DNA of 18,077 nt from a virus (IMGVR_UViG_3300045016_000151:1-18077); one strand, 5' to 3'; positions 348-17,102 are shown, counted from the stretch's first letter. Numbers and translations: made by a program. The notes: generated by a model not told the origin, from the letters alone.

Positions 348-652
348 AATTTATTGACGAAGAGTTGAATACATACATAGCCAAGGTATCGGGTTATAAA
401 ATCGACACTATGGTCGACGGCCTGCTTTTATATGCAAAATTAATGAAGTTTAAAGTTTGTTTTAGCGAAAATTATAAGGAACTGGCGGTTATTGCAAATG
501 CAAACGACTTTACATGGTATTATGCTGATGAAAACTTCTTGTATATGAGATATAATGAAAACACTCGTGTTCAAACAGTACCTATTTATATAGCCACAAA
601 AGCCGTATATTCGGGAATTATAAAATGCTTAGTACAACCCCCATCAAGATGA
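344..652 (+). CDS. hypothetical protein, 102 aa
   Basis: ATGA overlaps at both ends (344 and 649-652); no recognisable motif. Confidence 0.7.
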   Translation: MKFIDEELNTYIAKVSGYKIDTMVDGLLLYAKLMKFKVCFSENYKELAVIANANDFTWYYADENFLYMRYNENTRVQTVPIYIATKAVYSGIIKCLVQPPSR

Positions 653-1863
653 ACGCTGACAAACATTTGGTAATGGTTACGACTGACAATAATAATAAAT
701 ATTACGATATGCATGATAATGATGACGGTACATTTACCGCCACATGGGGGCGTATCGGTGTCACAACGTCTAATCAGACTTACCCGATAAAACAGTGGAA
801 TAGTAAGTTTAATGAAAAGGTAAAAAAGGGTTACACAGATCAATCGCATTTATTTATAAAACCAACTACTACTTCAAAACTACTTACAATTTCCGACGGA
901 AATATTAATGCGCTCGTAACTCTGTTACAGGGTTACGCAAATAAATCGATCGATGATAATTATACGGTTGATGCAAAAGTTGTCACACAAGCACAAGTAA
1001 ATGAAGCGCAAAAAATTATGAACGAACTCACGATATTTGTGAATAAATGTTCGGTTGACGCAGATGAAGTCAATGAAAAATTAATACTGTTATACGGAGT
1101 TATTCCACGTCGTATGTCTAATGTAAAAGATCATATTCTATACAAAGACACAAATCCACAAATGAAATTACGACTACAGAATTTTATAACCGCAGAGCAA
1201 GATACATTGGACGTTATGGCCGGTCAAGTGTCCGCACAGGCTGCAACTATACAAACCACTAAATCCAATTATACAATTTTGGACGCCATCGGTGTTGAAT
1301 GCAAACTCGTTGAAGACAAACAAACAGAGCAGAAAATTCTAAAGGCTATGGGTAACGACGCCAACAGACTTTTAACTGCTTATGAAATTGTGCATACTTC
1401 CTCAGCTGATAAGTATGCTAAAAATCTCGCGAGTTCCAAAAATAAAACCACAGAACTGTATTGGCATGGGTCACGTAATGAAAATTGGTGGAGTATATTG
1501 CAAACAGGATTACTGGTACGACCTACGAACGCCGTAATAACTGGCAAGATGTTTGGGTACGGTATATATGGTGCGGACAAATTCCAAAAGTCATTTGGAT
1601 ATACGTCTGGTAATAATTCTTATTGGGCACGTGGTAATCAAAACACGGCATTCTTAGGATTATTTGAATTTCATATGGGCAATACATTAACTGTACGACG
1701 TCACGAGCATTGGCAGTCTGAATTAACTCATAAGAAATTACGTGAACGCGGAGATTATGATAGTCTTACCGCTCTAGGCGGGGCTGATCTAAGAAACAAT
1801 GAGTTTATAGTATACCAGGAAGAACAACTAACTATTCGATATCTAATAAAGGTAAAAGGATGA
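649..1863 (+). CDS. PARP-family ADP-ribosyltransferase (WGR + helical regulatory + catalytic domain)
   Basis: N-terminal NNNKYY...TWGRIG...KVKKGY (WGR domain). QVNEAQKIMNEL...LYGVIPRRM resembles the PARP helical domain. Catalytic motifs YWHGSRNENWWSILQTGL, GKMFGYGIYGAD, KSFGY, NNEFIVY give the H-Y-E triad. Start moved from 625 to ATG 649 (ATGA overlap with the upstream stop). Confidence 0.93.
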   Translation: MNADKHLVMVTTDNNNKYYDMHDNDDGTFTATWGRIGVTTSNQTYPIKQWNSKFNEKVKKGYTDQSHLFIKPTTTSKLLTISDGNINALVTLLQGYANKSIDDNYTVDAKVVTQAQVNEAQKIMNELTIFVNKCSVDADEVNEKLILLYGVIPRRMSNVKDHILYKDTNPQMKLRLQNFITAEQDTLDVMAGQVSAQAATIQTTKSNYTILDAIGVECKLVEDKQTEQKILKAMGNDANRLLTAYEIVHTSSADKYAKNLASSKNKTTELYWHGSRNENWWSILQTGLLVRPTNAVITGKMFGYGIYGADKFQKSFGYTSGNNSYWARGNQNTAFLGLFEFHMGNTLTVRRHEHWQSELTHKKLRERGDYDSLTALGGADLRNNEFIVYQEEQLTIRYLIKVKG

Positions 1864-2150
1864 AAAAGCTAACACCTGCATTACAAGTATTAGTCGATCA
1901 GAAAGTCCGAGAGAATGCGGATAAAATTATCAACACTGTTATAAAGAAAAATGCTGATCGTATTTTAGCCGGCTTAAACGAATATTTACAAAGCGATGAA
2001 TTTAAACGAAAACTGTTGGCTACGGCGAAACTCGAAATTGACGACCGTATAGAAAACGAGAATTTGGATTCAATACTTACTCCAGCAAATTACAGGAAAT
2101 TTATTGTTAACTTCCAAGATACCGTCGCACGTATTCTCGGTGTAAAATGA
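1860..2150 (+). CDS. hypothetical protein, 96 aa, predicted helical
   Basis: ATGA-coupled to the PARP stop; no motif. Confidence 0.7.
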   Translation: MKKLTPALQVLVDQKVRENADKIINTVIKKNADRILAGLNEYLQSDEFKRKLLATAKLEIDDRIENENLDSILTPANYRKFIVNFQDTVARILGVK

Positions 2151-2316
2151 AATTCTTAAAACAAATCGTGGCGGTACTTATAGCCTTTATACCGACATGG
2201 TTATTCTTAATAGTAAAGGCCCTTTCAAGTCCAGAGGGATTTTGACAACAGTTGGTAATGTACTGCAATTGATTTTAATCCTTATCTGGTTTTCATTTAT
2301 AATATGGGAAAAATAA
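2147..2316 (+). pseudogene. small two-TM membrane protein apparently split by a -1 frameshift (or two overlapping micro-ORFs, 2147-2245 and 2197-2316)
   Basis: ATG 2147 gives MKFLKQIVAVLIAFIPTWLFLIVKALSSPEGF* (TGA 2243-2245). The -1 frame continues LTTVGNVLQLILILIWFSFIIWEK* to TAA 2314-2316, just before the next ATG at 2318. Confidence 0.45.
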
Positions 2317-2317
2317 T

Positions 2318-2671
2318 ATGTCAAACAAAGCTTTAGCAGCAGCACTCGCCACGTTACAACGTGCCGGGCAACTGAAACAAGTTGGAAGCGCTCTTTGTGT
2401 ACCAGTGAATGATGAAGTTATACATGATACAGCACTGGAATTGATTGAAAAACAGGGGTTTGTTACTACCCTACAAATTAAAAAGCAGTTACGATCGACC
2501 GGTTACTTTGTAAAGCAATATCAAATAAGTCAGGCGATGACCGATATGGTCGATAATGGTGAAGTATGTTTTACCAATGTCGATACACACGGAACTACGC
2601 ATCGCTTATTTTTCGATGAACAAACACCGGAACCGATAGCAGTAGCGGCTTATTACACAACAGTAAAATAA
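2318..2671 (+). CDS. hypothetical protein, 117 aa (possible winged-helix-like central part)
   Basis: Clean ORF. ALELIEKQGFVTTLQIKKQLRSTGYFVKQYQISQAM followed by beta-like segments is only suggestive of wHTH. Confidence 0.65.
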   Translation: MSNKALAAALATLQRAGQLKQVGSALCVPVNDEVIHDTALELIEKQGFVTTLQIKKQLRSTGYFVKQYQISQAMTDMVDNGEVCFTNVDTHGTTHRLFFDEQTPEPIAVAAYYTTVK

Positions 2672-2676
2672 CATGT

Positions 2677-2696
2677 GGAGAGTAGCAATACTCTCC
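2677..2696 (+). promoter_or_regulatory. perfect 8-bp RNA hairpin with GNRA (GCAA) tetraloop upstream of nadE
   Basis: GGAGAGTA-GCAA-TACTCTCC lies in the 40-nt gap, followed by SD-like AGAAAGG (2701-2707) and ATG 2712. Confidence 0.6.
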
Positions 2697-2711
2697 TTCA
2701 AGAAAGGTAAT

Positions 2712-3521
2712 ATGAAAAAACTAAACATATCTAAGGTATTATTATACCTTGTAGCACAAATACAAAAACGATTTAAAGCTGCTGGATATAGCAAAGCCAT
2801 TATTGGTTTATCTGGTGGGTTAGACAGTGCAACTGTCGCGGCATTAGCCGTTTTGGCATTAGGTCGGAAAAATGTTAGTTGTATTTATTTGCCGGCACTG
2901 GTCTCATCCGAGCGCTCTTTAAGGTTGGCAGAAGGTTTCTGTACAATTAATGAAGTATTTTTCAAGAGTAGCTCTATACAACCCATAGTCGATCGTTTTT
3001 CTGTCGAGTTGCCTATGAATTGTCTTTCGATTCCATATCAAAATTTACAGGCTCGCGTTCGCGGCGTTGTTCTTATGACTAAAGCAAATATTGATCATGG
3101 ATTAGTTATTGCAACTGGCAACAAATCCGAAAACTTAACAGGTTATTGTACATTATATGGTGACACTGTTGGCGCATTTGAGCCGCTAGGTGATTTATAT
3201 AAAACCGAAGTAATTGAATTAGCGTGTTATATTAATAAAATGACTACGGTACAAATATTGAATGAAATTATAGAACGTCCCCCTACCGCCGAATTAGCAC
3301 CAAATCAAACCGATGAAAAGGAATTGTTGCCATACGATAAGCTGGATCCGCTGCTAGATGGCTTATTAAAAGATACCTCACATAAGACGCTGGCGCGAAA
3401 ACTTCGTATTGCATTAGCGGATGTTGCGCGTATTGACCGAAGAATGAAAAACTCAGCGTTCAAGCGACGACAAACAGCACCAACTATAAAAATTCCTAAA
3501 AGGTGTTATGTCACCAGATAA
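2712..3521 (+). CDS. nadE: NH3-dependent NAD+ synthetase
   Basis: IIGLSGGLDSATVA (PP-loop SGGxDS), NLQARVRG, ATGNKSE..GYCTLYGD, PLGDLYKTEV, PPTAEL..NQTDE, AFKRR. No glutaminase domain. Start 2712 preferred over 2673 because of the SD and because 2673-2711 holds the hairpin. Confidence 0.95.
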   Translation: MKKLNISKVLLYLVAQIQKRFKAAGYSKAIIGLSGGLDSATVAALAVLALGRKNVSCIYLPALVSSERSLRLAEGFCTINEVFFKSSSIQPIVDRFSVELPMNCLSIPYQNLQARVRGVVLMTKANIDHGLVIATGNKSENLTGYCTLYGDTVGAFEPLGDLYKTEVIELACYINKMTTVQILNEIIERPPTAELAPNQTDEKELLPYDKLDPLLDGLLKDTSHKTLARKLRIALADVARIDRRMKNSAFKRRQTAPTIKIPKRCYVTR

Positions 3522-4086
3522 AGAAAAATACTTAACTACCACCTATCCCAAACTCTTTCCACCAAGACATGATCCGCGTGAAAGCTTAATGGTATTTGGT
3601 TTTGAGTGTGGAGATGGGTGGTTTTGGATTATAGATCAGTTATGTGCCATGATACAATGGAAAATTGATCAAGAATTTGAAAATTATAACCGTAAAGTAT
3701 CATATAATAAAATGATAGCCGATGCCCAAGCTGGTAATACCGACGACTTGGACAAATATTTTGAATTCATTGCGGATTTAAAACAGCGTGCCGAACGCAA
3801 AGCAGCCGCTTTAAATGCAGGATTAACGGATATTAAAGATGAAGACAAACCATATCAACCAGAAGTTATACAGGTAAAAGAGAAATATGGTACTTTACGG
3901 TTTTATATATCTGCCAGTTCATCGGAGATACATAATTATATTGCGTTTGCCGAACATTTGTCTGCAACCACATGCGAATTCTGCGGTAGTCATGAAAACA
4001 TCAAGACATCACAAGGCTGGATGATAACCGCTTGTGATAAATGTATACAAAGTCACGAGTCATTAAAAAATAGGAGTTGGAAATGA
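3508..4086 (+). CDS. conserved phage-type hypothetical protein with C-terminal Zn-binding CxxC pair
   Basis: FECGDGWFWII...QVKEKYGTLRFYI...TTCEFCG...GWMITACDKC, a motif pattern I recall from large-phage hypotheticals; function unknown. Confidence 0.75.
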   Translation: MSPDKEKYLTTTYPKLFPPRHDPRESLMVFGFECGDGWFWIIDQLCAMIQWKIDQEFENYNRKVSYNKMIADAQAGNTDDLDKYFEFIADLKQRAERKAAALNAGLTDIKDEDKPYQPEVIQVKEKYGTLRFYISASSSEIHNYIAFAEHLSATTCEFCGSHENIKTSQGWMITACDKCIQSHESLKNRSWK

Positions 4087-4451
4087 ACCCAAAATATTTA
4101 AAAATTACTTCATATATAGTAGGGAATACATTATTATTTATCGTAGAGGAACAAGGTGAATTATGGTATCATTTGAAGGGTTTTAAGTGTCCAAAGCAAA
4201 AGGTCGAATTCACGGACAAAGGATATGCTTGTATCGAACAGCATCCAAGCAAAACTGGTTGGCTCAGAGTTGGTTTGCGGGGTGATTCACGTTACAATGA
4301 CTTTAGAATAGAAGCAGTCAAGAGTGATGATCTTCTCAACATGCAAAAACGTGTCCTAGCTGCACTCGAGGTAGCAGCACAGCATATAGCAACGATAAGT
4401 GATTCAGCTCCAACTACACATTCACCTATTGTAAAAGAATTTAATGCTTAA
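4083..4451 (+). CDS. hypothetical protein, ~122 aa
   Basis: ATG 4083 overlaps the upstream TGA (ATGA); track start 4077 is an alternative. Confidence 0.7.
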   Translation: MNPKYLKITSYIVGNTLLFIVEEQGELWYHLKGFKCPKQKVEFTDKGYACIEQHPSKTGWLRVGLRGDSRYNDFRIEAVKSDDLLNMQKRVLAALEVAAQHIATISDSAPTTHSPIVKEFNA

Positions 4452-4860
4452 AGCCGTAAATCATTACTGGACTCGCGAAGAGGTAGCGAAAGATACAGAA
4501 CATTTATACCTTTTTGGAGAAAATATTGCTGACGCAAAACCAGATCCAATTAGTAAGAAGATCTTTATCCCAACAACGACTCAGGCAGTTATACGTGGAC
4601 TTAAGAACGCAATTGGGATCCCCACCAAAAAAACCCGTGGTACAAACAAAGATGCCTACTTTAACGATACTAATGCCGACTTTGAACTATTCAAGCGTGG
4701 AGTTGATGAAGCGATTGAGAAAGCCAAAAAAGACGGACGACCAATAAAGATCAGCGTATATGGACTAGGTACCGGAGCCGCCGCTGTAAGAGGTGCATTT
4801 AAAAATGGTACCGGGCGATTTTTTGATTACTTATATACACGGTTAGGAGAGCTAGACTAA
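4444..4860 (+). CDS. macrodomain-like protein (putative ADP-ribose binding/processing)
   Basis: LYLFGEN...TQAVIRGLKNAIGIPTKK...IKISVYGLGTGAA. The FGxN, QAxIR and NAxGIPTK pattern plus a C-terminal GxGTG loop resemble phage macro-like families. The CDS itself is solid; the function is inferred. Confidence 0.6.
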   Translation: MLKAVNHYWTREEVAKDTEHLYLFGENIADAKPDPISKKIFIPTTTQAVIRGLKNAIGIPTKKTRGTNKDAYFNDTNADFELFKRGVDEAIEKAKKDGRPIKISVYGLGTGAAAVRGAFKNGTGRFFDYLYTRLGELD

Positions 4861-5087
4861 TGTTCAATATATTAGAGTTGTTAATAATTGTTCCTGCGCT
4901 GTCAGCAATAATTGTACTGACGATACTTTCTTTGATTGACTGGAAATCAAACAACATCTGGTTTTGTGAAAAAATGGGTTGGCACAAGCCACCAGAACGA
5001 GTAGGATTTGACGGCTGTAGTATGGAGGGTTTTTGCCCCAGGTGTGGAAAGCACGTGTTAAGGGATTCACAAGGGAATTGGTTTTGA
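4860..5087 (+). CDS. small membrane-anchored protein with C/H Zn-ribbon-like C-terminus
   Basis: Hydrophobic N-terminus ILELLIIVPALSAIIVLTILSLI, then CEKMGWH...CPRCG; TAATG coupling. Confidence 0.7.
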   Translation: MFNILELLIIVPALSAIIVLTILSLIDWKSNNIWFCEKMGWHKPPERVGFDGCSMEGFCPRCGKHVLRDSQGNWF

Positions 5088-5100
5088 TCAGGAGATTGCC

Positions 5101-5253
5101 ATAAAAGAACATTTTACATTAACAATAGATTTATTTACCCTAGTATGGCTTACTATTGGTGTCATTTTGTGTTTAAACAATTTAATTAGCTGGTGGGTAC
5201 TATTACTCATTGGCCTTTCACACGTTCACGCAAAATTGGATTTTCATATATGA
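5101..5253 (+). CDS. 50-aa hydrophobic protein with non-canonical (ATA) or mutated start, not in ORF track
   Basis: GGAG at 5091-5094, 6 nt before ATA 5101. Frame reads IKEHFTLTIDLFTLVWLTIGVILCLNNLISWWVLLLIGLSHVHAKLDFHI*. The TGA overlaps the next ATG at 5250. Confidence 0.5.
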   Translation: MKEHFTLTIDLFTLVWLTIGVILCLNNLISWWVLLLIGLSHVHAKLDFHI

Positions 5254-5459
5254 TACACAAATTCTTTTTATACATAACAAATAACTTGCCAACGTCCTGT
5301 CATGAAGAAGTTTTCGACACGATATTTTTCATACTCAATTCGATTGCATTAGTTGTAGGTATTATTATACTAATCCTAGTAAATGAACCGCAATGGATAG
5401 CATTTCTTGTAATTGAGTATGACTGGGCATTGGATAATATAAGGCATAATAGACTGTGA
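5250..5459 (+). CDS. small membrane protein, 69 aa
   Basis: ATG 5250 in an ATGA overlap (preferred over track start 5193); hydrophobic stretch IFFILNSIALVVGIIILILV. Confidence 0.65.
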   Translation: MIHKFFLYITNNLPTSCHEEVFDTIFFILNSIALVVGIIILILVNEPQWIAFLVIEYDWALDNIRHNRL

Positions 5460-5845
5460 TGTCTTGGTTCGAAGCTGGTGCCTATAAAGATCCTCGACAA
5501 TTAAAAGGAGTCTGGATTCGTTTTAGTGCCGAATCCGATATAATGAAACGATTATATAAAACAAAACTACTCCGTTGGACCGATTATCCGTTATGGATGG
5601 CTATTGAAGAATATAACAAAGAACGCAATGAGTTGGGTGTTTATATATGGTGTAAAAATATTACTGATGTATTAAGAGGTAAATCCAGATATAATGTAAT
5701 ATTTATGTGGATTCCATATGATCCGCATTTGTCTTGTGAGGGCGATCTTGGGAAAGGATTAATAAAAAGTGAAAACAAAAAAAGAACTAAAGCAACAGGC
5801 GTGGGTCGAACGAAAGCAAAAACGAAATATCGAAAGAAAACTTAA
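5456..5845 (+). CDS. hypothetical protein with basic C-terminal tail
   Basis: GTGA/TGATG coupling to the upstream stop; no known motif. Confidence 0.65.
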   Translation: MMSWFEAGAYKDPRQLKGVWIRFSAESDIMKRLYKTKLLRWTDYPLWMAIEEYNKERNELGVYIWCKNITDVLRGKSRYNVIFMWIPYDPHLSCEGDLGKGLIKSENKKRTKATGVGRTKAKTKYRKKT

Positions 5846-5891
5846 ACGTAAGTCACGTAACCGCGCAATGCGCAGAAAGTTCGGATTGTAG
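5769..5891 (+). CDS. 40-aa highly basic micro-protein (MKTKKELKQQAWVERKQKRNIERKLKRKSRNRAMRRKFGL), not in ORF track
   Basis: GTG 5769 to TAG 5889-5891, which overlaps the GTG start of the next gene (TAGTG) and fills the 5846-5890 gap. 18 of 40 residues are K/R. Confidence 0.5.
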   Translation: MKTKKELKQQAWVERKQKRNIERKLKRKSRNRAMRRKFGL

Positions 5892-6259
5892 TGTCCACGT
5901 CAGATCGTGAGTTATTAAGAAAATGTGATCGCTTGGCACAGTTTATGAGCGTTCAGCAAGAAATAATTAAACGTCATATAGATGAACATAAATGGTATAG
6001 ACATATATCAGATACCACCGAAGCCGTCGCTGCTTTTAGCGATGAATACGGCTGGTTAATTCGCGAAGTGTGGTGCCGTTATACATGTCCAATTCGTAAT
6101 CAATGCACACTTTCAAAAAGTGGAGCCAAAATGAGAGCGATTACTACACGATTATTCAGAATATGGTGTTGGGCATGGTACGCACATGATCGGGATGTAC
6201 CCGGCCGATCCGTTGAAATATGTGGTCGATGCGGAGCACATATTGTAGGAGATGCCTAA
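5891..6259 (+). CDS. hypothetical Cys-containing protein, possibly two fused ORFs
   Basis: QQEIIKRHIDEHKWY...WCRYTCPIRNQC, then an in-frame internal SD (GGAG 6122-6125) and ATG 6131 before a WC..AH...CGRCG unit. Confidence 0.65.
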   Translation: MSTSDRELLRKCDRLAQFMSVQQEIIKRHIDEHKWYRHISDTTEAVAAFSDEYGWLIREVWCRYTCPIRNQCTLSKSGAKMRAITTRLFRIWCWAWYAHDRDVPGRSVEICGRCGAHIVGDA

Positions 6260-6492
6260 TGTCTGGACTAAGATGCTGTGTTTATTGTGATCGTCCTCTT
6301 ACCAACGAAAACAGTACAAATGTCTGTACTGTCTGTACTGAAGTTCGTGATACTAATTTTAGGAATGCATTCGTATACACTAAGATTTTAATGCTTAATC
6401 TCACCGATGAGCAACGTCGAAGTATAATGCGTGATTACTGCATTCACTGCGGCACACCTAATTTACCCTGTTTTTGTTTAAACGATGAATAA
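6259..6492 (+). CDS. small Zn-finger-like protein, 77 aa
   Basis: TAATG coupling at 6257-6261; CVYC...CTVC and CIHC...CFC motifs. Start moved from 6220. Confidence 0.65.
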   Translation: MSGLRCCVYCDRPLTNENSTNVCTVCTEVRDTNFRNAFVYTKILMLNLTDEQRRSIMRDYCIHCGTPNLPCFCLNDE

Positions 6493-6502
6493 GGAGAAAC
6501 AC

Positions 6503-6652
6503 ATGCAACAACTTTCACCCGAAGATGAAAAGAACATTCGAAATTATGTTGAGGAATTTGAACAACAAGGCAATGCCTCGAACGTATATCATTTACGCAT
6601 GTTATTAAATGAAATAGACCGATTAAGGGAACAATGCCAGATCAAGAACTAG
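6503..6652 (+). CDS. 49-aa hypothetical protein, not in ORF track
   Basis: Strong SD AAGGAG 6491-6496 and ATG 6503; MQQLSPEDEKNIRNYVEEFEQQGNASNVYHLRMLLNEIDRLREQCQIKN*. Confidence 0.7.
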   Translation: MQQLSPEDEKNIRNYVEEFEQQGNASNVYHLRMLLNEIDRLREQCQIKN

Positions 6653-6948
6653 ATACTTGGATTTGCCAGGCACTAAAACTTCCGAAAATGGAATTAGATT
6701 CTGACACCTTATTTAGTATAATAAAATATTTTTTCCCCGCAGCAGATTTTTGTGCCGATGAAAAAACTATAAAAGAAGTTGGTGCCGCATATATAAGGCT
6801 ATTGAATAGTGACAATGCTAGAGATTTAATTTTAATTGAAGAGCCCAATATCAAAAAAGTTAATCGAGCTTTATATATTGTTGTTATAGCAATAGCAAAA
6901 ACTGTCGAACAAGGAAAAGACACAATTGAGGTCTTAAAATTTCTATGA
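6634..6948 (+). CDS. hypothetical protein, 104 aa
   Basis: Clean ORF in the same-strand array. Confidence 0.7.
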   Translation: MPDQELDTWICQALKLPKMELDSDTLFSIIKYFFPAADFCADEKTIKEVGAAYIRLLNSDNARDLILIEEPNIKKVNRALYIVVIAIAKTVEQGKDTIEVLKFL

Positions 6949-7022
6949 AAATATCAAAAAAGCTGATCGCTGCCTGGTGGCCATTTTCCTTTGCCCTAAA
7001 AGCTATGGAGTCGCACTAAGAT

Positions 7023-8114
7023 ATGAGTACATTTATAGTACCGATTGTAACTATTAAAACTGTTATTAAACATCCAAACGCCGATTCATTAGATATACTA
7101 TCGTTTGAAGAAGTATCTTGGCAATGCGTAGATAAAATTAATACACGCAAACCTGGCGACATGGTAGTATATATTCCAATTGATAGTGTAGTGGACGTCC
7201 GTCGGCCAGAATTTGAGTTCTTAAAATCAAAGGCTAAGGCTGACTATTCTTGTCGTATACGTACAATCAGATTGCGTGGCGAGATTAGCCAGGGGTTGGT
7301 TATTTCTATGCCCAGCGATATGATAAAATGGCTGTGCGATAAAATTACTGGTCATAAAGACTGCGCACAAGGTATATCGTTTGATATACCAGGGCAGGAT
7401 GTATCGGAGTATTATGGTATAAAAAAATATGAGCCACCACCAGAAAGTATACCTCCTTTATCGGCAGGTAATTATCCAAGTTGGTGTGAAAAAAGCGATG
7501 CTGAACGATATCAAAACTATAATCGCACTATTGAGCCGTTTCGAGACCATGCATTTTATAAAACTATAAAAATGGATGGTGCCAGTATAACGGTATTTTA
7601 TGATGCGGAAACAGAACATAGCGGAGTCTGCAGCCGAAACTGGGAAATTAAAGAAAATAGTGATATCACAAGACTTGACAACTATTGGCTTATCGCGAAG
7701 AAATATAATTTACTCCAAATCGTAAAAGATATTGCTATGGATAAGGGTATAAAGCGCCTTGCGTTGCAGGGAGAGATGTGTGGTCCAGGCGTTCAAGGAA
7801 ATAAGATGGGACTTTCAGAACTACAATTTTTTGCCTTTGATATGTATAATGGTGATATTGGTGAATTTATCGAATATCCTTTCTTCATTGCATTATGTCA
7901 TTATTGGAAAATACCGACCGTCGAGATTTTAGAGGTTGGTACACTTGGGAAAGAACTCGATACTAATTTTGCGTATGTGTCACAATTGAAATATGATAAT
8001 GATTTACCTGCCGAAGGTGTAGTATATGTAGCAGTTAATTCACAGCGTGTAGGTACGCTTGGTAGACTAAAATTTAAATTTATCAACCCAGAATTTTTAT
8101 TAAAATATGATTGA
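7023..8114 (+). CDS. ATP-dependent RNA ligase, DRB0094/Rnl5-like (N-terminal OB-like domain + nucleotidyltransferase domain)
   Basis: IKHPNADSLD, GDMVVYIPIDS, RIRTIRLRGEISQGL (N-domain). Motif I IKMDGAS (KxDG), LQGEMCGPGVQGN, FFAFD, EGVV, FKFINPEFLLK. Confidence 0.9.
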   Translation: MSTFIVPIVTIKTVIKHPNADSLDILSFEEVSWQCVDKINTRKPGDMVVYIPIDSVVDVRRPEFEFLKSKAKADYSCRIRTIRLRGEISQGLVISMPSDMIKWLCDKITGHKDCAQGISFDIPGQDVSEYYGIKKYEPPPESIPPLSAGNYPSWCEKSDAERYQNYNRTIEPFRDHAFYKTIKMDGASITVFYDAETEHSGVCSRNWEIKENSDITRLDNYWLIAKKYNLLQIVKDIAMDKGIKRLALQGEMCGPGVQGNKMGLSELQFFAFDMYNGDIGEFIEYPFFIALCHYWKIPTVEILEVGTLGKELDTNFAYVSQLKYDNDLPAEGVVYVAVNSQRVGTLGRLKFKFINPEFLLKYD

Positions 8115-8721
8115 ACAAAAATGGGGGCAAACCCCCACCGCTTCGGAGGAAAAACCGAAGAATATCGAAATAGTTAAAGATCCTGCATTTGTTGAAGTAG
8201 TTGCAGTAAATAGATTTTATTTTTACTCCGAAATTGGTAGGGCGGAGGTTTTACAATTAAACCGACGTTTATTCGAAGCTAGCAACCAGTTATTAATCGA
8301 TGCGGCTGCACAAGAGCGCCCACCCGCAGAAATTTATCTGCACATTAACAGTTACGGCGGAAGTATCTTTGCAGGGCTTGCGGCAATGGACGCGATATTG
8401 CATTCAAAAATTCCCGTAGTAACCATTATCGACGGCTGTTGTGCGTCAGCGGCTACGTTTTTAAGCGTGGCCGGCAAACGTAGAATTATACGACCTAATG
8501 CTTATATGCTTATACATCAGTTATGGTCAGTAAGTTGGGGAAAATTTCGTGAGCTCGAAGATGATCATAAGAATAATAATAAACTTATGGACAAAATTCG
8601 TGAGATTTATGCAAAGTATACAAAGATTCCCGCAGAAAAAATAAACGAAATATTAGATCATGATCTGTGGTTTGACGCAAAGACATGCCTAGATTATGGA
8701 TTAGTGGACGAAATAATATGA
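8107..8721 (+). CDS. clpP: ClpP-family serine protease
   Basis: LHINSYGGSIFAGLAAMDAI, CASAATFL (Ser), MLIHQ (His), HDLWFDA...GLVDEI (Asp). Confidence 0.9.
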   Translation: MIEQKWGQTPTASEEKPKNIEIVKDPAFVEVVAVNRFYFYSEIGRAEVLQLNRRLFEASNQLLIDAAAQERPPAEIYLHINSYGGSIFAGLAAMDAILHSKIPVVTIIDGCCASAATFLSVAGKRRIIRPNAYMLIHQLWSVSWGKFRELEDDHKNNNKLMDKIREIYAKYTKIPAEKINEILDHDLWFDAKTCLDYGLVDEII

Positions 8722-8729
8722 GTTGCTGC

Positions 8730-8762
8730 ATTGTGCCCACACTATGCGGGCACAATAATTTT
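8730..8762 (+). terminator. intergenic hairpin, possible weak intrinsic terminator or processing site
   Basis: ATTGTGCCC (8730-8738) / GGGCACAAT (8748-8756) perfect 9-bp inverted repeat with a 9-nt loop, then AATTTT. Confidence 0.5.
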
Positions 8763-8774
8763 ACAAGGAGAAAA

Positions 8775-10386: not shown

Positions 10387-10604
10387 AAATAAATTGTTTA
10401 ATTAAGCACCATGAGAATTTAGGGCTGTATCGCATTGAAAATAAACAGTTTGAGGTGGAATTAGATCATATACCCAATACGAATAGTACGTTTGCGATAA
10501 GTACGGGCGAGTGTGCCGGCGTATATAGTGTCTCAGCACCAATTTATGAGCTCGATGATGCAAAAAGTAACCCATCAATAACTATAATACTAACACAAAA
10601 ATAA
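10383..10604 (+). CDS. hypothetical protein, 73 aa
   Basis: ATGA-coupled ORF. Confidence 0.65.
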   Translation: MKINCLIKHHENLGLYRIENKQFEVELDHIPNTNSTFAISTGECAGVYSVSAPIYELDDAKSNPSITIILTQK

Positions 10605-10606
10605 CT

Positions 10607-11488
10607 ATGAAAACTTCCTATTCCGAAATTGTCAGCACCAAGAAGCAGCACGATTTACTTATTGCTGCAAATCAGGAAATGCTGACTCCGGCGCACACAG
10701 ATGCGCACAACACGTTATTAATCTTAATTGATTTTCAGCAAGATTTTATGCCCAATGGGGCGCTGGGAGTACCAGGCGCAGATCAGGATGTTATGCGTGT
10801 CACAAAATGGATCTACGATAATATTGCAAAGCTTACTACGATTGCAGTTTCTATCGATACCCATAATCCTTTCCAGATATTTCACCCATGTTGGTGGGAA
10901 AACGAAAAAAGCGAAAATCCTCCTCCGTTCACTGCCATCTCTTTAGCCGATCTCGATTCTGGGAAATGGCGTCCAGTAATCTTACCAAACCATTCCCGCG
11001 AATATGTTGAAGCACTTAGTAAGTCCAACAAAAAAGTGCTTGTTATTTGGCCTTATCACTGTTTGCAGGGAACGCAAGGTTGTGCATTAGATCCCCAGAT
11101 AAGTAATATGGTATATTTTCATAGCGTGGCCAGGAAATCTATGGCTATCCGCATTGTAAAAGGCACCGATCCTGGTACTGAGATGTATGGTATTATCAAA
11201 CCAGAATGGGATCCGAAGAATTTTGTTAATATTCAGTTCCTGAATAAACTGGAACAATACCAGCAAATTGTCATTGCGGGTGAAGCAAAGTCGCATTGTG
11301 TATTAGAATCCATATTACAGATGCTTGAGCATTACAAACAAAGGCCAGAAATTACAAAACGAGTGTTTATTCTCGAAGATGCAATGAGTATTATTCCGGG
11401 GTTTGAAGGCATTACCGATGCAGCATTTAAAGATTTTAAATCCAAATATCAAGTAAATTTAACTACAACTAAGGATTTCGCACTATGA
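10607..11488 (+). CDS. pncA: nicotinamidase-like cysteine hydrolase (isochorismatase family, long form)
   Basis: LILIDFQQDF (catalytic Asp), SIDTH and IWPYHCLQGTQG (metal ligands), VKG (Lys), GEAKSHCV (Cys nucleophile). Substrate is inferred. Confidence 0.82.
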   Translation: MKTSYSEIVSTKKQHDLLIAANQEMLTPAHTDAHNTLLILIDFQQDFMPNGALGVPGADQDVMRVTKWIYDNIAKLTTIAVSIDTHNPFQIFHPCWWENEKSENPPPFTAISLADLDSGKWRPVILPNHSREYVEALSKSNKKVLVIWPYHCLQGTQGCALDPQISNMVYFHSVARKSMAIRIVKGTDPGTEMYGIIKPEWDPKNFVNIQFLNKLEQYQQIVIAGEAKSHCVLESILQMLEHYKQRPEITKRVFILEDAMSIIPGFEGITDAAFKDFKSKYQVNLTTTKDFAL

Positions 11489-12150
11489 ACGAAGAAAAAA
11501 CGGTACTTGGTTTAGATGAATTAGAGATCGAAAATACTTCTATCGAGGAAATCGATAGTGAGGAAGTACACCTAGTATGTGTAGCCGTCGATGCTTCTGG
11601 ATCTATGTCGCCATATGTCGAGGATATGAAGAAGTGTTTAGCGGACTTTAAAGGTGCGTTGACAGCATCAAAAGAAGAGAATAAAATCTTACTTGCCAGA
11701 GCAACTTTTAGTGATATTACTGATATTAGTGGCTATAAACCAATCAAGGATTTTGATGGGTCATATTCAGCCGCCGGTGGTACTACGTTGTATGATGTAA
11801 TAGTTGAAAGTGCCACAAAACTCACAGAGTACATGGATCATCTGAAGAGCCAGGGCATGCGTTGTCGCGCTGTTATTGCTGTCTTCTCTGATGGTGAAGA
11901 TACCTGTTCTCGTAAAAGCGCCGCTAAAGCACGTCAAGCCATTGAAGCTTTAAATAACAAAGAGATCACCACGGCTTTTGTATCGTTTGGCGGTGAAGCC
12001 GATACTGTAGCGAAAGATCTCGGATTTAAGAATCTTTTAACCGTGCAAAGTTCTGCACATGATTTACGAATCGCATTTAATTGTTTATCGAAATCTGTGA
12101 TCGAAAATTCAAAAGCAGTAACTCCTTCACAGGATGCGTTTTTCGTGTAA
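11485..12150 (+). CDS. von Willebrand factor A domain protein (TerY/YegL-like)
   Basis: Complete MIDAS: VAVDASGSM (DxSxS), GGTTLYD (T), VFSDGED (D). Confidence 0.9.
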   Translation: MNEEKTVLGLDELEIENTSIEEIDSEEVHLVCVAVDASGSMSPYVEDMKKCLADFKGALTASKEENKILLARATFSDITDISGYKPIKDFDGSYSAAGGTTLYDVIVESATKLTEYMDHLKSQGMRCRAVIAVFSDGEDTCSRKSAAKARQAIEALNNKEITTAFVSFGGEADTVAKDLGFKNLLTVQSSAHDLRIAFNCLSKSVIENSKAVTPSQDAFFV

Positions 12151-12158
12151 GATATTTA

Positions 12159-12191
12159 GGGTCGGGGAGTTAATCTCTCCGACCCCATTTT
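12159..12191 (+). terminator. GC-rich hairpin, putative intrinsic terminator
   Basis: GGGTCGGGGAG-TTAAT-CTCTCCGACCC (11 bp with one G-U pair) followed by CATTTT. Confidence 0.65.
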
Positions 12192-12446
12192 ATGGAAACA
12201 CGTAGATACTCGATTTGTTGTAATGCATCACCTGTACAGGAATTATGTGTATATAATCTGATATATCACGGTTTATGCAGTCGCTGTAGAGAAAACTCAA
12301 TTTTTTATACATTAGCACAATTGGAGCGTTTAGATGGTAATCAACAAAATAGGAAAATATCATTTAGATTCGGGATTGAACAAGCAGGATATTGGTTACG
12401 AGGACTCGAAGATAAAATTTGTGGCGGACGGCTGCGGAGAAAGTAA
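12192..12446 (+). CDS. small Cys-rich (Zn-binding-like) protein overlapping the phosphatase gene
   Basis: YSICCNA...GLCSRCREN motif in the N-terminal half; the last 113 nt overlap the next gene. Confidence 0.6.
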   Translation: METRRYSICCNASPVQELCVYNLIYHGLCSRCRENSIFYTLAQLERLDGNQQNRKISFRFGIEQAGYWLRGLEDKICGGRLRRK

Positions 12447-13041
12447 GTTTTCCGAGTTTGGGGTAATTATGGCTTATTGGTACTTTAAGAAATGCGCTGC
12501 GCTACGAGAACTCGAATGCGGCGCTTATATGGATACTCCACACTTAAGCCATATGTTCAATCACATTGCCTCAAGATTTGACTTAACCACAAAACCAACG
12601 GCCCTCGATCAAATAAATTTAGACTTTATCAGAGAATGTTTATTATTTACTACGCTATTACTCTTTGAAACTCAAGATACCTTCGAAGCTGAAACTATAG
12701 GAGATGGGTTTTTGATTCTTATAGATCACAATGATAAAATTACATTTGAAGAACTGGCACCAACGGAAAAATACGTCCCATTTTTTGCGTATGATTTTAT
12801 CCCTGAAACACGATTAAGCACACACAAAGATCCCATAGAAATAAAAAAGTATTCGTTTTCTAAGTCACAATATAAATGTGTTGGACTGGCTTCAGATGGA
12901 CTTCGGTTTTATTTTAAACTTCCACCGCTATTGCAAGAAGAATTTCTTAAGTTATTAATAAAAGGAAAGGAAGTACCGGTTAAGCTTTTCATAAATCGTA
13001 ATTATTCATATTTTCAGGATGATATCACAATAGTACTATGA
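12334..13041 (+). CDS. PP2C-like protein Ser/Thr phosphatase (YegK/TerY-P type)
   Basis: GKYHLDSGLNKQD, VADGCG, IGDGF, LASDGL, QDDITIV; the metal-binding Asp motifs are present. Confidence 0.85.
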   Translation: MVINKIGKYHLDSGLNKQDIGYEDSKIKFVADGCGESKFSEFGVIMAYWYFKKCAALRELECGAYMDTPHLSHMFNHIASRFDLTTKPTALDQINLDFIRECLLFTTLLLFETQDTFEAETIGDGFLILIDHNDKITFEELAPTEKYVPFFAYDFIPETRLSTHKDPIEIKKYSFSKSQYKCVGLASDGLRFYFKLPPLLQEEFLKLLIKGKEVPVKLFINRNYSYFQDDITIVL

Positions 13042-14741
13042 AAATAGATAAACGTACACTAGGTCTACCAATTGCCGAAGGCGGTGAAGGGCAAATCTAT
13101 ATTGGCAAGACTACCGGAGATGTACTTAAGGTCTTTAAACCCGGGGCTGATCTGGATGCCAAAAGAAATAAACTCGAAATATTATTACATACAAAATTAC
13201 CCACTACAGTTGTAGCTCCCAAGGATTTACTATACAATTACGCAGGTGATTTTATTGGGTATGTGATGCCTAATTTGCATGAGATTGAGGAATTTAGAGC
13301 ACTGACAAGTCGAAAAACACTTGCAGCATATAATATACATATAATAGATATTCTTCATATGCTCGTATCGGTTCGTGATACAATTTTAGAACTACATCCA
13401 CAAAATATTTTTATTGGGGATCTAAATGATGCCAATGTGGTATTTACTGGGGGGCTGGACGCGCGTATTCTTGACGTTGATAGCTGGAGCATTGGTTCTT
13501 ACCCATGTGTAGTGGCAATGGATTCATTTAAGGATCCTAAATTGAAAGGAACTAATTTTAATGCGAACACTGATGCGTATTCTTTTGCGATTTTGGCTTT
13601 TAAGAGTCTTACCAGATTACATCCGTTTGGTGGTACGGTTAGCCCTAATATGGATCTTCTTGAGCGAATGTCTAAGGGCCGTTCCGTACTAAATCCAAAA
13701 GTAAAAGCAATTATACCACGAATCATAGATCCCTGGGAATATATGTATCCAGGATTTCTCGAGGACTTGTCTCGAATATACGATCAAGGTGTTCGAATAA
13801 TGCTTGTAAAATCATTGGATGAGTTCGCAGAAAACCTAACGCGTTGTCAAGCACATGGCAATGATTACTATGCAAAGTATGATAAATGTCCGGTATGTTT
13901 TAAGGCCACATTAAAGCCGATACAACCACAAAAAGTTCCGACAACAGCTGGTATTATTATGACTAAAATATTTGCAAGTAGAGATCGTGTAGAACTTTTA
14001 AATGATAACTCGTATATAGATTCAAATGGATATGTATGTCATATAAAAACAGCGGCGCAGGCACTTATACACTTTGGCGAAAAGACTTATTTTTATGATG
14101 ACGGTACCAAGTTAACAACTAATACCGACAACATTTTTTTGGGATCGGCTACAATACCAAAATTACATAACAGTAACGTAATAATAAAGCCGGCGGATAA
14201 ACAATTCTTCTATGTTTCTCCTAACCTGACACTACATAAGTGCAATATTGTTGGTGCGGCAGGAGTCTCGCCACAGGTATTAGCGCATGTTGCTATAAAT
14301 CACGTTTATTCAGTGGCTTCTGATTCATATTGTGTTATTAATTTTTATGATCATAAAACTATTATTGAAACCGATAAAAATTTTATCGAGTTAGCCGATA
14401 TTATTCGACCGACAAGCTACGGACTGCATTATGATGATATTACTAAAAGATGGTTATTTATATATGAATCTACGACGGGTAAGTTCGTCACATATGTCAT
14501 TGAGAAAACAAACGTCTTATTTAAGAATGATGCATTAAGATATAATGTACCTTTAGATTCTTTAGCATTTCATTCAAATACTATTTATACTGCGCACACT
14601 GATTTAGTGCGCGGATATAATTGGAAGAAAAATGAATATAAAGATTTTAACTGCATAGGTACTGAGGAAGGTGCAATGCTAATGTTCAAGGGTAAGAAAA
14701 TCATTATTATTAATCAAAAAGAAATATATGAGGCAGGTTAA
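13038..14741 (+). CDS. Ser/Thr protein kinase (YegI/TerY-P type) with Zn knuckle and long C-terminal domain
   Basis: IAEGGEGQIY (Gly loop), VLKVFK (Lys), IGDLNDANV (catalytic loop), ILDVDSW, DAYSFAILAF..LTRLHPFGG; then CQAH...CPVC and a beta-rich tail of about 270 aa. Confidence 0.9.
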   Translation: MKIDKRTLGLPIAEGGEGQIYIGKTTGDVLKVFKPGADLDAKRNKLEILLHTKLPTTVVAPKDLLYNYAGDFIGYVMPNLHEIEEFRALTSRKTLAAYNIHIIDILHMLVSVRDTILELHPQNIFIGDLNDANVVFTGGLDARILDVDSWSIGSYPCVVAMDSFKDPKLKGTNFNANTDAYSFAILAFKSLTRLHPFGGTVSPNMDLLERMSKGRSVLNPKVKAIIPRIIDPWEYMYPGFLEDLSRIYDQGVRIMLVKSLDEFAENLTRCQAHGNDYYAKYDKCPVCFKATLKPIQPQKVPTTAGIIMTKIFASRDRVELLNDNSYIDSNGYVCHIKTAAQALIHFGEKTYFYDDGTKLTTNTDNIFLGSATIPKLHNSNVIIKPADKQFFYVSPNLTLHKCNIVGAAGVSPQVLAHVAINHVYSVASDSYCVINFYDHKTIIETDKNFIELADIIRPTSYGLHYDDITKRWLFIYESTTGKFVTYVIEKTNVLFKNDALRYNVPLDSLAFHSNTIYTAHTDLVRGYNWKKNEYKDFNCIGTEEGAMLMFKGKKIIIINQKEIYEAG

Positions 14742-14989
14742 TGAAATTTCAACAATGGAAAGAGAATTTTAAATGCAAAGCATGCGGAGAATTAAATGAG
14801 GATCTGTTAAAGGCCGTAGTTGTTGCCACCGGCATCACATGTTGCCCCAATTGTGATGAAGTGTTAATTCTTGATCGCAAAACAAACAACTATGTTGGTT
14901 GTCAATGTACAGAGGATGAAAGAATAGCGGCATCCAGACGAAAATTATTTTCTGACACACTATTTAGCGACATAGAAAGGATGCATTAA
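14741..14989 (+). CDS. small Zn-ribbon protein, 82 aa
   Basis: CKACG...CCPNC...CQC; TAATG coupling to the kinase stop. Confidence 0.7.
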   Translation: MKFQQWKENFKCKACGELNEDLLKAVVVATGITCCPNCDEVLILDRKTNNYVGCQCTEDERIAASRRKLFSDTLFSDIERMH

Positions 14990-14995
14990 TATAAG

Positions 14996-15253
14996 ATGAA
15001 CTGGAAATGCTGTAAAAAGACAATTGTCGATGCCCTCTATAACTATGACTTAATTGATATTCGATATAAGATTATCGGTTGCCTAGGTAGTATGTTAATA
15101 GGAAGTATTATTTATATTTTCGATCATAGTTTGGAAGGCCTTTTGTATTGGTGTTTTGGTGCAATTATGCCATGGCCTATTATTCATGTGTTAGTACGTA
15201 CGAAAGAATGGTATGAAAGCTACGTTACTTATCGAGAACAAAGACTTCATTAA
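14996..15253 (+). CDS. small membrane protein, 85 aa
   Basis: Two hydrophobic segments (IIGCLGSMLIGSIIYIF; LLYWCFGAIMPWPIIHVLV). Confidence 0.7.
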   Translation: MNWKCCKKTIVDALYNYDLIDIRYKIIGCLGSMLIGSIIYIFDHSLEGLLYWCFGAIMPWPIIHVLVRTKEWYESYVTYREQRLH

Positions 15254-16286
15254 AAAATACTCTAATGAGTACGGGGAAAGATTAGTATTAATAACACCAC
15301 AGTATCAGGGGTGTGCTTGGGACAAGATGAACCTGATATTTCGAAGTTCTATCTGGACCGAAGACGGTTATTTAGTTAGCCCCAGCTTTCCAAAGTTTTT
15401 TAATTGGAATGAAAAAGATAATTTAGTACCGCCTCCGCAGAGTTTAATCAATACTACGGCTGTAGAGAAGATCGACGGTAGTGCATTAATAGTAACTCCT
15501 TACAAAGGACAACTTATCATACGTACACGAGGTACATTTAATGCCGATATTTTTGAGAATTTTGATGAAATCAAGTTTTTCAAAAAAGAGTTTCCCAAGG
15601 CATTTGATTTTTCTGATGAAACATGCACCCGTATATTTGAATGGTATAGTCCAAAAAATAAAATTGTATTGGATTTAGGAAAAACTCCGCGATTGTTCTT
15701 AGTAGGTATAATAAGGCACGAAGACTATAGTTTATACACTCAAGCTTCATTGGACCTCATAGCTCGTCAGCTTGGCGTTGAAAGGCCTGCATCTTTTACT
15801 TTTGAATCTGTAGAGCATTTATTAGAGGAGGTACAAAGATTCGATGGTAAGGAGGGGGTCTGTTTATACTATGATTTGGATCAACACATAAAAAAGATCA
15901 AAGGCGATAAATATTTGGCTGTGCACGCATTTAAAAGCGATCTCAGTATAAATAATTTATTGGAAGCCTATACACTTTATGGTAGACCCAAGTACCAAGA
16001 TTTTTATAATTATATTGCCAATACATATGATTTTGAATGCGCTGAAATAGCTAAAGGAGACATTTCAAGATTATGTGATGCCAATAAGGAAGTTGAAAAA
16101 ATAGTCGAGCATATGAAAGTATTTGCGAATGATTGTAAATTACTGTCTCGAAAAGAAGCCGCGTTAAAGATTACACAAGCCTACGGCAAAACCAGCCGTG
16201 CGGGATTTGTGTTTACATTATTAGACGGCCGGCAGCTCGACGCGGAAGCATACAAAAAACTCTTACATCAGGTGATACCAAAATGA
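15213..16286 (+). CDS. T4 Rnl1-like ATP-dependent RNA ligase
   Basis: FRSSIW...SFPKFFNWNE, motif I EKIDGS, RTRGT, IFEWYSPKNKIV, EGVC, KIKGDKY. Confidence 0.88.
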   Translation: MKATLLIENKDFIKKYSNEYGERLVLITPQYQGCAWDKMNLIFRSSIWTEDGYLVSPSFPKFFNWNEKDNLVPPPQSLINTTAVEKIDGSALIVTPYKGQLIIRTRGTFNADIFENFDEIKFFKKEFPKAFDFSDETCTRIFEWYSPKNKIVLDLGKTPRLFLVGIIRHEDYSLYTQASLDLIARQLGVERPASFTFESVEHLLEEVQRFDGKEGVCLYYDLDQHIKKIKGDKYLAVHAFKSDLSINNLLEAYTLYGRPKYQDFYNYIANTYDFECAEIAKGDISRLCDANKEVEKIVEHMKVFANDCKLLSRKEAALKITQAYGKTSRAGFVFTLLDGRQLDAEAYKKLLHQVIPK

Positions 16287-16690
16287 ATATAAAATTAGGA
16301 TCAAAGATCGTTCCTCGCAAAAATAGTAATAGTCATAACTATGAACTCGGCAAAACATATGAAGTGTATACACATCCAATATCTATGGGTGCGGTCTGTA
16401 CATTTTCAGCAAAAGACCCAGTAACCGGTACAATTGGAAATACTTTACTCAGTACGGACTGCGAACTAGCGATAGTTACTAGAGATGAACTAAAAGAGGA
16501 ACTTGAGCGGTTAGAGAGGGAAATCGACCTTGTTCAGGCGAAACTTGACTGGATGGATGAATTTAATGCAGATACACTTAATCCAGAAGAATTTCGTGTT
16601 TTTCATATATTACAAGAAGCCAATTATACTGGAAAAACGTTACTTGAGCGATCTCGAGCTATAGTGAAGATTCTGAACGAAAATGCCTAA
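16283..16690 (+). CDS. hypothetical protein with coiled-coil segment
   Basis: ATGA-coupled; heptad-like RDELKEELERLEREIDLVQAKL. Confidence 0.7.
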   Translation: MNIKLGSKIVPRKNSNSHNYELGKTYEVYTHPISMGAVCTFSAKDPVTGTIGNTLLSTDCELAIVTRDELKEELERLEREIDLVQAKLDWMDEFNADTLNPEEFRVFHILQEANYTGKTLLERSRAIVKILNENA

Positions 16691-17102
16691 GAAAATATCT
16701 GCCGGTGCCATTATCACTGATGGCACCGTGTTTCTTGTATGCCACGCAACAGGACAGAAAATTTGGGATATTCCCAAAGGTGGTGTTGATCCTAATGAGA
16801 ATTTTCTTGAAGCGTGCATTCGTGAGGTCAAAGAAGAAACTAACTATGATGTACCAGAGACAGCTGTAATCGAGGAACTTGGACAGTTTACATATTTACC
16901 GGCCAAAGATCTCTATTTATTCAAGATCACTGTTGAGCCGTTACCTAATATCGATTATATGAAATGTACGTCGATGGTAAATCTTCCAGACAAACCTCCA
17001 TTTCCCGAGGTTAACGCATTTAAGTATATTTATCCAAGGGTTGCTGATGAATATATATCACAAAATCTAAAACGCACATTAGTAATGGCAGGAGTACTAT
17101 GA
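16683..17102 (+). CDS. Nudix hydrolase
   Basis: Nudix box G-GVDPN-E-NFLEACI-REVKEET preceded by WDIPK; substrate unknown. Confidence 0.92.
   Translation: MPKKISAGAIITDGTVFLVCHATGQKIWDIPKGGVDPNENFLEACIREVKEETNYDVPETAVIEELGQFTYLPAKDLYLFKITVEPLPNIDYMKCTSMVNLPDKPPFPEVNAFKYIYPRVADEYISQNLKRTLVMAGVL

Follow-up and report, generated by a model that had tools for sequence, protein, structure and literature searches.

Background

Nicotinamide adenine dinucleotide (NAD+) is at the centre of the conflict between bacteria and phages. So far, three pathways by which phages reconstitute NAD+ have been validated (NARP1, NARP2 and NARP3). All three are amidated, and no other type of route is described in the NARP1/2 preprint (10.1101/2024.02.11.579819) or in the NARP3 paper. 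For jumbo phages, Iyer et al. (2021; PMC7824862) described PARPs and an amidated synthesis of NAD+. Here we analyse the first 18 kb (IMGVR_UViG_3300045016_000151:1-18077; 18,077 nucleotides, hereafter "the window") of a 215,016-bp virus record in IMG/VR with a CheckV completeness of 100%, which represents a phage found repeatedly in lake-water metagenomes. A first-pass annotation of the window had listed five genes, namely a PARP, the NAD+ synthetase NadE, a "macro-like" gene, a nicotinamidase (PncA) and a Nudix hydrolase, and had proposed that they form a dispersed NAD+ cycle that runs through nicotinate.

Deamidated routes in phages have been reported from genome content. Li et al. (Microbiome 2024) found complete NAD+ synthesis in 174 of 668 gut jumbo phages, including Preiss-Handler pncB-nadD-nadE clusters (e.g. 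Kuafu_71) alongside PARP and other consumers; they name phage pncA in their Discussion alone, list lakes among the habitats, and propose both self-supply and counter-defence as roles (PMC11662467). A published experimental test of the deamidated phage route was not found in the literature. With its 215 kb and the gene set described below, the phage studied here falls among the NAD-jumbo phages, that is, genomes of more than 200 kb in which one or more pathways of NAD+ synthesis are encoded in full.

Results

A complete deamidated route is predicted in the phage genome

The 215-kb genome appears to encode every step of the deamidated route from nicotinamide through nicotinate, nicotinic acid mononucleotide (NaMN) and nicotinic acid adenine dinucleotide (NaAD) to NAD+, because it carries, in addition to PncA and NadE in the window, genes for PncB and NadD (Table 1). 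These two middle enzymes had been named by the first-pass annotation as the ones to look for in the rest of the genome, and both were found above their equivalog cut-offs, that is, the curated NCBIfam thresholds in bits. Altogether three of the four enzymes exceed such cut-offs, and PncA is identified by its complete active site.

PncB has the architecture NAPRTase_N (146 bits) plus NAPRTase_C and occupies the single NAPRTase-family (PF04095) locus of the genome. In NadD the motifs GSFDPPHAGH (HxGH) and SSTDIR (SSTxxR) are both present; the protein scores 17 bits on the NadR NMNAT model. The PP-loop of NadE (SGGLDS) is intact. Among full-length models the protein fits the synthetase half of the glutamine-type NadE best, though the glutaminase domain is absent, as had been stated before. 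The genome-wide family search found no CN_hydrolase (glutaminase) gene elsewhere either; all negative family searches given below likewise cover the whole genome. The window NadE is thus presumably ammonia-dependent and would perform the last step, from NaAD to NAD+.

PncA scores low against hidden Markov models (HMMs): 22.7 bits with Isochorismatase (cut-off 27) and 43.9 bits with the PncA equivalog model (cut-off 174). We attribute this to an insertion of about 48 residues and to N-terminal and other terminal extensions. Despite the sub-threshold scores, the designation as a nicotinamidase holds by the complete active site. Nicotinamidases make up all significant matches of a phmmer search against PDB, and the triad D42/K185/C231 as well as the metal site D84/H86/H151 align to P. 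horikoshii PncA (D10/K94/C133 and D52/H54/H71, respectively, in 1ILW). These six residues are the same in every one of 12 relatives.

We consider it moderately probable that the phage encodes a full deamidated recycling of nicotinamide to NAD+, which would hold up the NAD+ pool during infection. PncA would convert nicotinamide to nicotinate and NH3; PncB (at 122.6 kb of the genome) would combine nicotinate with phosphoribosyl pyrophosphate (PRPP) from the host to form NaMN; NadD (at 134.4 kb) would turn NaMN into NaAD, which the glutaminase-less NadE would amidate to NAD+. The nicotinamide to be recycled would come from the phage's own WGR-PARP and from any host NADase. Gene presence, family membership and catalytic motifs are direct observations; from them we infer the enzyme activities and the flux through the route.

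The claim that this route is unlike NARP1 and NARP2 stands: the deamidated set is complete, and there is no Nampt or PRPS-like gene. For NARP1, whose marker is the PRPS-like Adps, a Pribosyltran_N search with a limit of E <= 0.1 was negative (Namat was not searched with a model of its own). The NARP2 marker Nampt is absent, as the single PF04095 locus has NAPRTase_N/C and not NAMPT_N. The NARP3 marker PnuC gave no PF04973 match at E <= 0.1 (NadR was not searched separately). With one NAPRTase-family gene of the PncB type and neither a PRPS-like gene nor PnuC nor a glutaminase, no alternative NAD route is found in the genome. The same Pribosyltran_N search found no PRPP synthetase, for which the first-pass annotation had suggested to look, so that PncB would need host PRPP.

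The order of the last two steps might also be that of Francisella, with NadE amidating NaMN to nicotinamide mononucleotide (NMN) and the adenylyltransferase then making NAD+, so that NaAD is bypassed. Single-domain NadE enzymes include NMN synthetases (the Francisella case, listed as reference 186 in PMC7824862), and in several relatives the adenylyltransferase that goes with PncB and NadE is of the NadM type and not NadD. However, the adenylyltransferase of the present genome passes the NadD equivalog model, and NadD enzymes prefer NaMN. We think that this order is very improbable here.

A further suggestion had been that the ammonia released by PncA is the substrate of an NH3-only NadE. We rejected this hand-off as a general rule. 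It is not required, since one related locus (L019) pairs the same PncA with a glutamine-dependent NadE and many PncA phages have no NadE at all.

PARP, a winged-helix protein and DUF7831 as the proposed consuming side

The alignment of the proposed PARP with human PARP1/2 starts at the helical regulatory region and extends across the catalytic domain (PARP1/2 residues 120-328), and the H-Y-E triad of the phage protein is intact (H281, Y315, E393). It has the combination of WGR domain, helical regulatory region and catalytic domain with H-Y-E by which PARP1/2-like proteins are recognised, and judged from these predicted domains its core is eukaryote-like. PARP is also the sole NAD+ consumer that we recognise in the genome, because the DNA ligase of the phage is of the ATP-dependent type and the family searches found neither SIR2 nor Tpt1 nor the adenylation domain of NAD-dependent ligase (LigA). 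Canonical erasers of the Macro, ADP-ribosylglycohydrolase and PARG types were not found in the genome.

The small winged-helix protein ORF117 has homologues between PARP and DUF7831 in five related loci (L003, L015, L017, L018 and L019). Its structural model has a pLDDT (predicted local distance difference test) of 92, and the top PDB matches are winged helices of the PadR/Fur/MarR type, with a best E of 6e-4. The "macro-like" gene is a real open reading frame (ORF) and its predicted fold does bear a weak resemblance to macrodomains, but the family to which it belongs is DUF7831. Its model found nothing in PDB at E <= 0.001 with Foldseek and matched solely other DUF7831 or unnamed proteins among the AFDB clusters, and the family HMM had no match among the PDB sequences.

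The relatives that are reached via DUF7831 share a common core of WGR-PARP, ORF117 homologue and DUF7831, which is followed by an RNA ligase. PARP, the winged-helix protein and the macro-like DUF7831 are, in our view, a conserved NAD+-consuming side. A more distant DUF7831 gene (46% identity; L020:519-1325) has a YAcAr (SLOG-family) gene as its neighbour. Their contig also carries an integrase and RecT, which makes the setting temperate-phage-like, and PARP is absent there.

NAD modules are exchanged beside the PARP core

The NAD gene that stands beside the PARP/DUF7831 core differs between relatives. In the window, as well as in L003 and L017, it is the single-domain NadE. In L019 its slot holds a two-domain glutamine-dependent NadE (628 bits, cut-off 479), a protein of 566 amino acids with CN_hydrolase and NAD_synthase domains (L019:5975-7675). 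L015/L016 have Nampt (515 bits, cut-off 405) and a NadM-Nudix-like protein, i.e. a NARP2-type pair, and L018 has no NAD gene at this place. We read this swapping, which is seen directly in the gene orders, as functional replacement at one locus by interchangeable modules with predicted NAD functions. Since the best model of the window NadE is the synthetase half of the glutamine-type enzyme, this lineage may have lost the glutaminase domain. In all five NadE-bearing loci (5/5) the pair of PncA and a von Willebrand factor A (vWA) gene lies downstream.

Co-occurrence was surveyed in two record sets, 20 large PncA-bearing IMG/VR records and 50,697 GenBank phage records. Among the former, NadE is present in 11 and the NAPRTase family in the same 11, so that NadE and PncB co-occur perfectly (both in 11, neither in 9); cytidylyltransferase-like genes occur in 14 and PARP in 12 of the 20. 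The only PARP-less record with NadE or PncB is one 95%-complete strain (G015; here and below, G numbers denote IMG/VR records and L numbers loci). The first-pass annotation had expected pncA and nadE to go together across large phages. This is borne out in so far as NadE, together with PncB, is found in 11 of 20 records, but many PncA phages have no NadE. Among the GenBank records, this form of PncA occurs in 4, PncB-like proteins in 24 and NadE-like proteins in 15, and no record is in all three lists. A single-protein scan of IMG/VR with PncB found one relative only.

The lineages differ in how the genes are arranged. In G006 (168 kb, with terminal repeats), NadE and PncB interrupt the PncA cassette, standing between vWA and PP2C, and PARP lies elsewhere; a 543-amino-acid protein with a CoaB/DFP-like domain (67 bits; L008:15797-17428) follows PncB there. 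In a lineage of about 160 kb, PncB and NadE are neighbours, and a NadM-type adenylyltransferase and PARP are also present. G012 has the cassette and PARP only, G008 the cassette and an adjacent NadM-type gene only, and G023-G026 (about 83 kb) the cassette alone. The PncB of the present genome is of the TIGR01513 type and that of G006 of the TIGR01514 type (416 bits), with 30% identity over 186 residues. Between lineages the NadEs are about 32% identical and the PncAs 53-56%, and the adenylyltransferase is NadD here and NadM in others. Judged by NCBIfam subfamilies and identities of about 30%, different lineages have non-orthologous versions of PncB, NadE and the adenylyltransferase. Because these enzymes differ while the PncAs are 53-56% identical, the same two criteria point to repeated assembly of the same predicted pathway.

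These patterns also bear on the question of what the NAD+ would be made for. Its main role could be counter-defence, with NAD+ rebuilt after the action of host NADases of the TIR, SIR2 or SEFIR type and with PARP being incidental. NADase defences release nicotinamide, which is the entry substrate of PncA, and NARP1-3 show that phages are rescued by NAD+ reconstitution. A relative (L015/L016) has the NARP2-type pair of Nampt and NadM-Nudix in the same neighbourhood, and Li et al. propose the same role for NAD-jumbo phages (PMC11662467). On the other hand, the deamidated route needs PRPP and several ATP-consuming steps and does not, unlike NARP1, reuse ADP-ribose, and the NARP papers do not mention such a route. 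Moreover, NadE and PncB are found almost solely in PARP-bearing lineages among the sampled relatives. Counter-defence as the main role therefore appears possible to us but doubtful; it is compatible with, and does not exclude, a recycling route that also serves the phage PARP. The link to PARP and any counter-defence role are both things that we infer from this gene content.

The nicotinamidase belongs to a vWA/PP2C/kinase cassette

PncA opens a four-gene cassette with a vWA protein, a PP2C-type phosphatase and a Ser/Thr kinase-like protein. The residues of the metal ion-dependent adhesion site (MIDAS) of the vWA protein (DxSGS, T, D) are invariant. The kinase-like protein has no Pfam match in the window, and its 38%-identical orthologue in L010 has Pkinase at 46.9 bits. 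A profile of the PncA clade recovered 69 loci in IMG/VR. Wherever the flank was recovered, vWA is directly downstream of PncA, with PP2C and the kinase next in nearly all. PncA is accompanied by vWA/PP2C/kinase in practically all of the 69 loci that have flanking sequence.

A co-fold of PncA and vWA gives weak support for a direct contact, with a score of 0.32 compared with 0.00 for the best of three controls; the runs have at least 78% contact agreement and a partner pLDDT of at least 84. Of 80 solved complexes, 58 reach the mark applied to such co-folds, compared with 2 of 110 mismatched pairs; at scores of 0.60 or less it is reached by only 7 of the 80 solved complexes and by both of the passing mismatches. 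We take the predicted PncA-vWA interaction as a hint and no more.

Several observations weigh against the proposed recycling route. The four genes are scattered over 130 kb, and PncB and NadD have no neighbours with a relation to NAD. The phage has no PRPP synthetase, so that the route relies on host PRPP and ATP. The tie of PncA to vWA/PP2C/kinase is much closer than its tie to NAD genes; the complete genomes G012 and G008 and the ~83-kb G023-G026 carry the cassette without NadE or PncB, and in the PncA-bearing set just 3 of the 9 records of at least 90% completeness have NadE and PncB. We conclude from this that PncA is bound first to the signalling cassette and that the remaining pathway is an optional add-on. 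The correlation of PARP with NadE and PncB is only suggestive, as it comes from few lineages that are mutually related.

Alternatively, there might be no integrated cycle. PncA would then be the output of the signalling cassette, for example removing or sensing nicotinamide, and NadE, PncB and NadD would help the host to make more NAD+ from nicotinate, each as an auxiliary metabolic gene of its own. This would agree with the presence of the cassette in essentially all 69 flanked loci and in complete genomes without NAD genes, with the overlaps of 4 nucleotides (nt) in PncA-vWA and PP2C-kinase, with the distance of more than 100 kb to PncB and NadD, which have unrelated neighbours, and with the weak co-fold of PncA and vWA. 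What it leaves unexplained is that NadE and PncB, otherwise rare in phages, co-occur perfectly on the PncA background, that G006 has both of them inserted within the cassette between vWA and PP2C, and that a NadM-type adenylyltransferase lies directly upstream of PncA in G008, G007 and G009. We regard the absence of a cycle as unlikely, and the deamidated recycling route remains the reading that we prefer.

Some further observations concern these neighbourhoods. The G023-G026 type (L051 and similar) comprises about 40 near-identical contigs, mostly from one sample and with one flagged as a provirus, which have the PncA-vWA-PP2C-kinase cassette without NadE, PncB, NMNAT or PARP; the cassette must therefore have a function that is independent of phage-encoded salvage. 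Between NadD and the stop of a PolyA_pol/CCA-adding-enzyme-like gene (73 bits; G000:133645-134921, which is L002:779-2055) there is an overlap of 4 nt, and this suggests that NadD is co-translated with a tRNA-repair function and not with the other NAD genes. Near PncB (G000:119517-131929, L021) there are a dCMP deaminase-like gene, the ATP-dependent DNA ligase, and a PcfJ-like gene with another small vWA protein, the second of the genome, encoded after it.

It is tempting to join all parts into a self-contained ADP-ribosylation system, in which the WGR-PARP has a winged-helix partner, the macro-like DUF7831 as eraser or reader, and a dedicated, exchangeable NAD+ supply, and in which the entry through nicotinamidase is gated by the vWA/PP2C/kinase switch. 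Nicotinamide clearance and NAD+ resynthesis would then start only once PARP or a host NADase becomes active. We offer this as a speculation that is quite unlikely to be correct as a whole.

The Nudix gene is probably part of an RNA-repair block

The fifth gene of the first-pass annotation, the Nudix hydrolase, had been counted as a member of the NAD+ cycle. We rejected this. The gene sits in a conserved block of RNA ligase, Nudix and RlaP/PNKP; the same order is found in L015 and L018, and the small Nudix gene always comes after the RNA ligase. In PDB it comes closest to Ap4A hydrolase, Dcp2 and RppH (27-32 bits), compared with about 22 bits for ADPRases. Because of this gene context and similarity, we assign the Nudix gene, with good probability, to RNA repair and not to the NAD set. 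The order of the RNA-repair set recurs in relatives, with PNKP and Ro60 further downstream in L015 and L018. The ClpP-like protease gene next to the first RNA ligase has a parallel in L019, where the two are paired in reversed order.

All five ORFs of the first-pass annotation are present on the plus strand where it had placed them, and the start codons that it proposed at 649 and 2712 agree with where the homologue alignments begin. They belong to a tightly packed co-directional array: all long ORFs of the window are on the plus strand, mostly with overlaps of 1-8 nt. The window has no tRNAs, and a megablast search with it against GenBank phages gave no match.

Table 1. Genes discussed in the text. 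G000 is the 215-kb genome of this phage; all other positions are those of the window. Cut-offs are given in brackets.
Feature	Position	Strand	Evidence and remarks
WGR-PARP	649..1863	+	ORF opens at 625, likely start 649; PF00644 79.9 bits, WGR 28 bits
ORF117, small winged-helix protein	2318..2671	+	always accompanies PARP and DUF7831 in relatives
NadE, single-domain NAD+ synthetase	2712..3521	+	ORF opens at 2673; PF02540 205 bits, TIGR00552 182 bits (63.65)
DUF7831 protein	4444..4860	+	candidate reader or eraser of ADP-ribose, macro-like but divergent; paired with PARP
PHA02142/RNA_ligase-type ligase	7023-8114		RNA-repair set
ClpP-like protease	8107-8721		PF00574, 114 bits; immediately after the first RNA ligase
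PncA, long-form nicotinamidase	10607..11488	+	opens the four-gene cassette; predicted nicotinamide to nicotinate + NH3
vWA protein	11485..12150	+	MIDAS motif intact; VWA 19.8 bits (sub-threshold); overlaps PncA stop by 4 nt
PP2C-type phosphatase	12334..13041	+	PF13672 36.4 bits; conserved downstream of PncA-vWA
Ser/Thr kinase-like protein, 567 amino acids	13038..14741	+	orthologue in L010; PP2C and kinase genes overlap by 4 nt
RNA ligase, T4 Rnl1-type	15213-16286		RNA-repair block
Nudix hydrolase	16683..17102	+	PF00293 54.5 bits; catalytic REVKEE (Nudix box) intact
RlaP nucleotidyltransferase	17291-18007		RNA-repair block
PncB, nicotinate phosphoribosyltransferase	G000:122641-124038		NF006695 597 bits (469), TIGR01513 547 bits (297)
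NadD, NaMN adenylyltransferase	G000:134355-134921		TIGR00482 139.7 bits (112.45)

Comparison with known systems

If it works, the deamidated route would be a fourth strategy of NAD+ reconstitution next to the three validated ones, and proof that a cofactor pathway of four steps can be carried by phages. The genome is a clean test case, with four intact enzymes, no competing route and a NARP2-type swap in close relatives, and it would link NAD+ supply to a phage PARP. As a kind of system it is not new: Preiss-Handler pncB-nadD-nadE sets together with PARP are already in print (PMC11662467). The phage is thus a clean example of a gene-content observation that has been published before.

Like the NAD-jumbo phages (PMC11662467), it has a genome of more than 200 kb with pncB, nadD, nadE and PARP. 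Unlike in their clusters, its NAD genes are dispersed, and the nicotinamidase extends the predicted route back to nicotinamide. We found no description in that work of the vWA/PP2C/kinase cassette of PncA or of the core of PARP, winged-helix protein and DUF7831.

With NARP2 and the NadV/NatV type of Vibrio phage KVP40, which consist of Nampt and Nmnat-Nudix (10.1101/2024.02.11.579819, PMC7824862 section 3.4.8), the phage would share a phage-encoded conversion of nicotinamide to NAD+. NARP2 is amidated, has two steps and has been shown to work, whereas in this genome there are four predicted deamidated steps and no Nampt; a NARP2-type pair is carried by the relative L015/L016, next to the orthologous PARP. 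Bacterial Preiss-Handler salvage uses the same four enzyme families (PncA, PncB, NadD and NadE), whose catalytic motifs are intact here. It differs in that the present set is virus-borne, that PncA has the insertion of about 48 residues and lies far below its equivalog cut-off, and that NadE resembles the glutamine-type synthetase half without a glutaminase domain.

The PncA cassette resembles the TerY-P triad of a TerY-like vWA protein, PP2C and a Ser/Thr kinase, for which a phosphorylation switch has been predicted (Anantharaman et al. 2012, as summarised in PMC10542128). Both encode a vWA protein (with MIDAS), PP2C and a kinase together, the kinase domain here being recognised only in the L010 orthologue. 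Unlike TerY-P, the triad is phage-borne and stands in an operon with a nicotinamidase. The window PARP, finally, has the WGR, helical and catalytic architecture with H-Y-E of bacterial WGR-PARPs such as Clostridioides difficile CdPARP and Herpetosiphon PARP (PMC5966428), and phage PARPs have been noted before (PMC7824862). It differs from the bacterial WGR-PARPs in being encoded by a phage and in being paired with a winged-helix protein and DUF7831 instead of PARG, macro or ARH erasers.

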